Of a DNA stretch of 13,636 bases, positions 6,555 to 6,561 are shown piece by piece. Both the position numbers and the translations under genes were made by a program. Numbering within the stretch: the stretch's first letter is position 1; every line of letters begins with the position of its first letter. The notes under the pieces are model-generated. The model was not told the DNA's origin. It did no database searches and was given only the letters and a program-made list of their open reading frames with translations. The stretch comes from Escherichia coli (GTDB taxonomy: Bacteria > Pseudomonadota > Gammaproteobacteria > Enterobacterales > Enterobacteriaceae), in NCBI RefSeq assembly GCF_003334315.1, contig NZ_QOWR01000080.1. The stretch is one strand, 5' to 3'.

Positions 6555-6561
6555 TGAACGC

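Follow-up and report, generated by a model that had tools for sequence, protein, structure and literature searches.

Two genes that converge and end within a few nucleotides of each other raise the question whether their junction is the scar of a recent insertion or an inherited arrangement. We address this question for a stretch of 13,636 nucleotides of Escherichia coli DNA (contig NZ_QOWR01000080.1 of RefSeq assembly GCF_003334315.1; in the following, the window), in which a gene for an HNH protein on the plus strand meets nanS, the gene for sialate O-acetylesterase, on the minus strand. The original prediction, made from the letters of the window alone, had interpreted the tight convergence as read-through collision or as a very recent insertion junction, and had placed the right-hand edge of an accessory islet at positions 6555–6561. 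Our comparisons indicate that the 7-bp gap is very probably an old, inherited 3′-to-3′ junction between the last gene of the conserved nan operon and the innermost, oldest occupant of the leuX hotspot. This occupant would be a two-gene modification-dependent restriction module, consisting of a gene for a sulfur-binding-domain (SBD)-HNH endonuclease on the minus strand and the divergent HNH gene on the plus strand; in the window, the HNH gene is intact and its partner is cut to a 5′ fragment. DNA that is currently mobile, a CP4-like island here and a retron-carrying P4-like satellite in a sister genome, ends further to the left.

The convergent stops of the HNH gene and nanS

The three elements that form the junction were taken from the list of open reading frames (ORFs) and read directly in the sequence:
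5904–6554, plus strand: HNH ORF, 216 amino acids (aa), with the stop codon TAA at 6552–6554
6555–6561, no strand: spacer tgaacgc between the convergent stops, exactly 7 nt
6562–7542, minus strand: nanS (sialate O-acetylesterase), 326 aa, intact; its stop reads tca at 6562–6564

Both the ORF coordinates and direct reading confirmed that the stops are 7 bp apart. Neither stop codon was misassigned, and the RefSeq annotation of identical or near-identical genomes gives the same end for the HNH coding sequence (CDS). NanS of the window ends with ...ILQFWRER, as does K-12 NanS, and the two genes share ~98% DNA identity. nanS is the last gene of nanC-nanM-nanS, and the order beyond it in the window is nanM, nanC, fimB, fimE and fimA. 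Of six other E. coli loci compared, five carry the junction sequence AATTAATGAACGCTCACC unchanged, and the sixth (L094, from strain SWYHX138.261ft) has one substitution in the nanS-coding part of AATTAATGAACGCTCACC with stops and spacer unchanged. L094 also carries both genes of the module intact beside nanS, with the same 7-bp gap between the HNH gene (1781–2431) and nanS (2439–3419). Since 165 convergent overlapping gene pairs were reported for MG1655 (PMC12288877), the 7-bp gap is a structural fact and no statistical anomaly. The G+C content is 0.48–0.52 on either side of the junction, without a step in the G+C and skew profile. An ungapped search with a 25-mer and a 17-mer of the leuX 3′ end, allowing up to 3 mismatches, gave no match near 6555–6561, and no att-like repeat was detectable between the HNH gene and nanS.

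The nanS 3′ flank across E. coli genomes

The comparative alignment of the nanS 3′ flank that had been proposed together with the original prediction was carried out with junction-spanning sequences as queries against 5426 complete E. coli genomes. The nanS 3′ region was present in 5013 of them, with a conserved nanS side and at least four structural classes on the left flank:
Full HNH gene with junction: 1152 genomes
571-bp deletion that took the promoter and the 5′ part of the HNH gene, homology from 6449, last 106 bp of HNH left: ~1539 genomes (2691 matching the 6449-type query minus the 1152 full-length ones, as the tool joins pieces and counts both)
O157:H7-type replacement, homology from 6507, last 48 bp of HNH left, transposase remnant adjoining: 445 genomes
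K-12/Nissle type, homology from 6559: 1741 genomes

Together, these four classes comprise ~4877 of the 5013 genomes. Approximately 63% of the nanS-carrying genomes (~3100) thus have the identical junction preceded by 3′ sequence of the HNH gene. Some piece of the module occurs in 4891 genomes (90%), and both of its genes are covered to at least 80% in 326. Breaks that reach into nanS are rare, with examples in which homology starts at 6577 and 6736. The breakpoints of the three reduced classes lie at the following positions:
5918–5929, plus strand: left microhomology of a 641-bp deletion, CGATCATCTTCC; its partner CGCTCACCTTTC lies at ~6559–6571 (imperfect repeat)
6449–6461, plus strand: right end of the 571-bp deletion, TTTACTTCCTGT; the left repeat TTTGCTGCTTGT lies at ~5863–5877
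6507, no strand: breakpoint of the O157:H7-type replacement, with the transposase remnant next to it

The joints of the 571-bp deletion differ slightly between two of the compared loci, L004 and L005. Such a distribution is what we would expect if a dispensable module had been eroded from the left by microhomology deletions, insertion sequence (IS) or transposase insertion and island replacement, with nanS being retained. Breakpoints would then heap up at the nanS stop and rarely cross it, and the boundary would look exact for this reason. Selection on nanS would be the factor that shapes the breakpoint positions.

The K-12 deletion and the origin of YthB

In K-12-type genomes, the 641-bp microhomology deletion took out the body of the HNH gene, and the missing part extends from codon 6 to a point 5 nt beyond the stop. 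The K-12 joint reads ATGAATAAACTCCCCG|CTCACCTTTCGCG, where ATGAATAAACTCCCCG corresponds to the first 16 nt of the HNH gene and CTCACCTTTCGCG is located 2 nt before the nanS stop. K-12 retains the endonuclease fragment, the HNH ribosome-binding site and the upstream region (86% identity in the 5769–5903 region). Because the HNH start and promoter region were kept, the K-12 type is, judged by its sequence, a deletion derivative and not an empty site, and the break in homology at 6559 represents the right end of a deletion inside the HNH gene and no insertion site.

The same deletion fused the HNH start to the frame antisense to nanS and thereby gave rise to the annotated K-12 small protein YthB, MNKLPAHLSRQNCKIASTNLSEIIPRRAAVLK. 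Its gene (L002 5987–6085) corresponds to window positions 5904–5919 plus 6561–6643, so that YthB consists of the HNH start codon and 5 HNH codons in frame with 27 codons antisense to the nanS 3′ end. YthB has been detected as a tagged protein in K-12 (bioRxiv 10.1101/511675); a statement of its origin by deletion was not found in the literature that we searched.

Two further observations concern this region. In recent RefSeq/PGAP annotations, nanS is often labelled 'incomplete; missing C-terminus' despite an intact ORF of 326 codons (L001 8677–9021, L002 6370–6984, L088 3470–4036, L092 3177–3743 and L005 4646–4990). This label appears to be an annotation artefact of a YthB-like ORF annotated over the nanS 3′ end. 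Moreover, the remnants of the module in the K-12-type locus L002 (window 5624–5747 and 5808–5927) are 10–14% diverged from the window's copy over stretches of ~120 bp, compared with 2.3% for the nanS gene beside them.

Age of the junction

Between strains, nucleotide divergence amounted to 2.8–5.1% for the HNH gene, 1.1–2.3% for nanS and 1.4–2.8% for nanM. A second copy of the block, ~11% diverged, adjoins type II Zorya genes in strain HCM-24C-3 (L097). It contains the gene for the phosphorothioate (PT)-dependent endonuclease, the HNH gene, 135 bp from the 3′ end of nanS and a fragment of nanM, and it keeps the architecture of TAA, 7 nt (TGAATGC) and TCA. This second copy spans L097 4592–6868 and L095 4993–6160, with a Wadjet JetD gene on its other side in L097, and a further reduced version of it was found in O157:H7, ~33 kb from the normal nanS. 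These locations suggest that flanking chromosome and a defence island were imported jointly from a diverged lineage.

The junction is not recent, because ~3100 genomes share it, HNH divergence equals or exceeds that of nanS and the ~11%-diverged copy has the same layout. On these sequence comparisons, we regard a recent insertion at 6555–6561 as excluded, and the recency assumed in the original prediction is thereby withdrawn. Since no full-length HNH gene was found in representatives of other Escherichia species, the age estimate is founded on divergence within E. coli together with the one diverged copy.

The edge of mobile DNA and the leuX hotspot

The nan operon (nanS, nanM, nanC) was described as the commonest border of the leuX hotspot in a panRGP analysis (bioRxiv 10.1101/2020.03.26.007484). 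Consistently, our comparison shows variable, accessory DNA on the left side of the nanS stop, and the conserved side begins with nanS. Two features further to the left locate the end of the mobile DNA:
5100–5138, plus strand: degenerate copy of the leuX tRNA 3′ end, consisting of CGGCCTTCGCACC, 3 more TTCGCACC units and then A; att-type, end of the CP4-like island
5139–5325, plus strand: left-end remnant of an older leuX island, without the integrase gene; 82% identity to L090 6001–6205 and to L091

The genuine leuX 3′ end is tccggccttcggcacca; compared to it, 5100–5138 has a 1-nt gap and an expansion of an 8-bp repeat. This site was found by eye, by TRF and by comparison, and it is the only leuX-like repeat. 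Ungapped searches of the window with the leuX 3′ end (25-mer and 17-mer, up to 3 mismatches) returned nothing. The stretch L090 6001–6205 extends from the leuX end to the ATG of a P4-type integrase, and the alignment GCACCA|TCGGAACATCAATAGACGTCAACGG... is common to the window, L090 and L091; in the latter two, it is leuX or an internal copy of its end that precedes TCGGAACATCAATAGACGTCAACGG. Likewise, TCGGAACATCAATAGACGTCAACGG... follows leuX in Raoultella terrigena (L007), as read from the ORF translation.

Among the genomes, 1374 match segment 4850–5620, but in nearly all of them the match begins at 5100, 5111 or 5119 and covers only what lies to the right; ~1350 genomes have this right side in common, and no more than 21 have the left side too. 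The sister genome (L001) is 100% identical to window 5111–7000 and has a P4-like satellite and a retron in place of the CP4-like island. Because the matches are mostly confined to the right and L001 is collinear from 5111, we place the junction of currently mobile DNA, on sequence grounds, at 5100–5138, ~1.4 kb left of the nanS stop. Both the CP4-like island (window, L092, L093) and the P4-like satellite (L001) end there and not at 6555. The original prediction was therefore right in seeing a border between variable and conserved DNA at the nanS stop, whereas the edge of the mobile island lies elsewhere.

The 8-bp unit TTCGCACC stems from the leuX 3′ end and is present in 4 consecutive copies in the window (5103–5140), 3 in L001 (6809–6840) and 1 in L091 (~5005–5015), and this variation in copy number is a small tandem expansion at an att-type junction. 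The distal end of the CP4-like island in the window carries genes for DUF932, RadC, a YeeU-type antitoxin, a CbtA-type toxin and DUF4942 proteins, a CopG/ParE pair and a 262-aa HTH protein. An ORF at 5340–5525 on the minus strand (61 aa, good Shine-Dalgarno sequence) matches phrog_25874 over its full length (E 4e-47, function not assigned) and occupies the position expected for the integrase gene of the older leuX islet.

Window positions 1–204 are an IS1 fragment that is 99% identical to IS1 in L001. In sister strains, IS1 is located between fimB and fimE (L001) or has removed nanC-fimB (13C1065T, L096); strain 13C1065T is identical to the window on the left but was rejected as its source because of the IS1-associated loss of nanC-fimB. 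In the window itself, fimB (10905–11506) has a 1-nt deletion in an A7 run at codons 7–9 (A6 at 10926–10931), causing a frameshift in this recombinase gene, and the longest ORF left starts with TTG at 11018; fimB could be a real pseudogene, or the frameshift could be a homopolymer sequencing error.

The HNH gene and its partner in a probable restriction module

The Pfam HNH model (PF01844) matched residues 141–197 of the 216-aa protein (E 4e-4), and the translation contains the HNH motif with its Cys pairs (CQCNVCG...HMHH...CPNCH). The N-terminal region weakly resembles the head domain of ScoMcrA (PDB 5zmm residues 29–93, E 9e-5) and the C-terminal region EcoKMcrA (PDB 6ghc, E 1e-3). PADLOC assigned both halves weakly to type IV methyl-directed enzymes (mREase_IV, E 1e-5), and 11 HNH families of PHROG matched. 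Neither an SBD nor an SRA domain was detected in the 216-aa protein, and NCBIfam holds no model for it. Changes between HNH alleles were 24 synonymous to 9 non-synonymous codons in one comparison and 12 to 6 in another. A common allele (L092 2105–2755, L093 2105–2755, L004 4227–4364) encodes VYPNCH, with Tyr for the first Cys of CPNCH, and metal binding is probably disabled in its product; the allele of the window retains this Cys.

Upstream of the HNH gene, two features complete the module:
5604–5767, minus strand: N-terminal fragment (~54 codons) of a gene for a phosphorothioated-DNA-binding restriction endonuclease (SBD-HNH); pseudogene, annotated as partial in RefSeq
5769–5903, no strand: divergent intergenic region of 135 bp between the PT-endonuclease gene and the HNH gene; AAGGA at 5891–5895 is the HNH ribosome-binding site

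Window 5604–5877 has a 96% match in L004 4001–4270, and the intact 290-aa SBD-HNH protein of L004 scores 437.6 bits on NF045808 (cut-off 180). The fragment in the window, with ~54 N-terminal codons kept, fails full-length membership and is a pseudogene of this family. The HNH promoter presumably lies within 5769–5903, where the scan called no consensus promoter.

The HNH gene and the divergent gene for the PT-dependent endonuclease form a two-gene module. Citrobacter sp. FP75 carries this divergent pair as well (81% and 70% aa identity), at a locus that is unrelated and lacks nanS, and an HNH homologue with 67% identity was found in an islet of Raoultella terrigena together with leuX, a truncated integrase and AbiE. 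Among 50,697 phage records, no full-length HNH relative was found, and only 5 records of the plasmid collection, some of them with chromosome-sized lengths, cover at least 80% of the HNH protein. In view of these two collections, the HNH gene is not typically phage- or plasmid-borne. The module would have arrived as cargo of an old leuX islet of the P4-integrase type.

Transcription across the junction

On the plus strand, the scan of the window revealed no terminator-like hairpin with T-run from 6372 to 7700, and no terminator-like site was found on the minus strand from 6562 to 5808. Two elements close to the junction are relevant for its transcription:
6488–6513, minus strand: hairpin CCGGCGUAAAC-GGUG-GUUUGCGCCGG, 50–75 nt past the nanS stop in the RNA; strong, no U tract
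6554–6643, plus strand: ORF MNAHLSRQNCKIASTNLSEIIPRRAAALK, 29 codons, antisense to the last 27 nanS codons, in the frame of K-12 YthB

As it lacks a U tract, the hairpin is no canonical intrinsic terminator; K-12-type genomes do not have it, and in O157-type genomes it is cut. Folding of the RNA around the junction gave no significant overall z-score, and an Rfam scan of the whole window yielded zero family matches. In at least 50% of 58 RNA-seq samples of MG1655, ythB-nanS was listed as a convergent excludon (PMC12288877). Given this listing and the absence of terminators from the scanned stretches, convergent read-through at the HNH/nanS junction is plausible in this strain, which preserves this part of the original prediction. 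Since intrinsic terminators are lacking on both sides, each transcript would run antisense into the opposite gene and would probably end via Rho action or processing. We infer that the transcripts overlap in this strain. The dismantling of the HNH promoter or body in many lineages that keep nanS argues against an essential regulatory role of such an overlap.

The ATG of the 29-codon ORF overlaps the HNH stop (TAATG), and direct reading found no Shine-Dalgarno sequence before ATG 6554. RefSeq lists the ORF as hypothetical protein WP_374758120.1, and no NCBIfam model matches the 29-aa product. The idea that 29 codons are unusually long for this frame was rejected, as other runs in this antisense frame reach 35 and 101 codons.

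Weighing of alternative explanations

If the HNH gene belonged to a recently inserted islet with 6555–6561 as its fresh right-hand insertion junction, this would account for the start of homology to K-12-type genomes at 6559, inside the spacer, for the variable left flank and for the HNH homologues in leuX islets of another genus. We consider this very improbable, as ~3100 genomes in three structural classes share the junction, the HNH gene has diverged at least as much as nanS and the 11%-diverged copy has the same junction. Additionally, K-12 keeps the HNH start and promoter and is a deletion derivative rather than an empty site, neither an att repeat nor a G+C step is present at the junction, and the island edge is at 5100–5138. 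The least credible proposal takes the HNH gene for a free-standing endonuclease gene of the homing type with a precise insertion downstream of nanS, and K-12 for the uninvaded allele. HNH nucleases are common among homing enzymes, and the ORF body is absent from K-12 almost exactly (codon 6 to 5 nt past the stop). However, K-12 keeps 16 nt of the ORF, the ribosome-binding site and the upstream region, the joints show microhomology, and the other HNH-less alleles keep 48 or 106 bp of the 3′ end, leaving no clean empty allele. The phage records contain no full-length relatives, and the N-terminal domain, the partner gene and the conservation of the divergent pair in Citrobacter point to modification-dependent restriction enzymes.

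A functional layout is less improbable, though still unlikely: the HNH gene and the TAATG-coupled 29-codon ORF antisense to nanS would form an excludon that makes the expression of restriction and esterase mutually exclusive. The overlap of the ATG with the HNH stop, the shared frame with YthB, the detection of the YthB protein, the listing of ythB-nanS, the lack of terminators and the conservation of the layout including the diverged copy are compatible with it. On the other side, the internal ATG lacks a Shine-Dalgarno sequence, a run of 29 codons is ordinary in this frame and the conservation of the ORF is fully explained by the coding constraint of nanS. The coupling is also dispensable, as a third of the genomes deleted the HNH gene and others its promoter while keeping nanS. 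The start codon of K-12 YthB is a deletion accident, and no Rfam family matches. More doubtful still is an extension in which the HNH mRNA, covered by ribosomes via the TAATG-coupled ORF, silences nanS in cis and vice versa, and in which YthB is a selected chimera born from the deletion (5 HNH and 27 nanS-antisense codons), by which the antisense control is maintained although the nuclease has been lost.

An old 3′-to-3′ junction between nanS and a decaying restriction module therefore remains our preferred explanation, and several observations weigh against it. A genome contig scan of species representatives of other Escherichia gave no match for an HNH orthologue with more than 70% identity. 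Overlap of transcripts was seen only for the K-12 arrangement, where the annotated CDSs overlap anyway. The tRNA scan found no tRNA genes in the window, and the assignment to the leuX hotspot comes from other genomes, the window being without a leuX gene; in K-12, leuX lies ~40 kb upstream of nanS. No att-like repeat was detectable between the HNH gene and nanS that would mark the right end of the old islet, and the module could equally be ancestral chromosome and not island cargo. Finally, the 10–14% divergence of the K-12-type remnants suggests deep haplotypes or repeated import and not simple vertical descent.

Comparison with known systems

The leuX border at the nan operon, SBD-HNH endonucleases of the EcoWI type, YthB and the ythB-nanS overlap are already published, and the novelty of our findings is low. 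What we add is the base-level anatomy of two layers, with a degenerate leuX repeat as the end of the mobile island and, directly beside nanS, a restriction module that is older and decaying, together with three recurrent breakpoints inside the HNH gene and the deletion origin of YthB. The map of the leuX hotspot is thereby refined to base level by an older 1.4-kb layer of defence genes between 5100–5138 and nanS, and YthB is explained as a by-product of the deletion of an HNH nuclease gene. More generally, homology that breaks off exactly at a stop codon does not have to mark an insertion; here, several independent deletions stop short of a retained gene. The understanding of islands, restriction systems and convergent genes is unchanged by these findings.

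Among PT-dependent endonucleases of the SBD-HNH type (EcoWI, SprMcrA and ScoMcrA; NF045808), of which EcoWI restricts PT-modified plasmids in vivo (PMC7461809), the intact allele of the window's neighbour gene is a family member, whereas the window has only a fragment of it. The 216-aa HNH protein shares the head-like N-terminal region with ScoMcrA and has an HNH domain of the McrA type, but differs from the family by the lack of a detectable SBD.

With convergent excludons, the HNH/nanS pair has in common the convergent genes, the tiny intergenic gap and the lack of an intergenic terminator, and its K-12 derivative ythB-nanS is a member of the published MG1655 excludome. It differs in that many lineages dismantled the partner gene. 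The 27 C-terminal residues of YthB recur in the product of the window ORF at 6554–6643, with A for V close to the end as the only substitution. Translation of YthB begins at what was once the HNH start codon (MNKLP...), whereas the window ORF starts at the ATG that overlaps the HNH stop, without a ribosome-binding site of its own.

A further correspondence is with the leuX hotspot itself, which extends from ahr/leuX to the nan operon; KpLE2 of K-12 and the leuX pathogenicity islands belong to it. As in the hotspot, variable DNA in the window is followed by nanS-nanM-nanC-fimB-fimE-fimA, the persistent genes on the right begin with nanS, in agreement with the panRGP analysis, and a leuX 3′-end repeat is located at the island junction. 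Whereas the published border is defined at the level of genes, the window resolves it to the base, and the innermost 1.4 kb (5139–6554) stand out as a decaying older layer.
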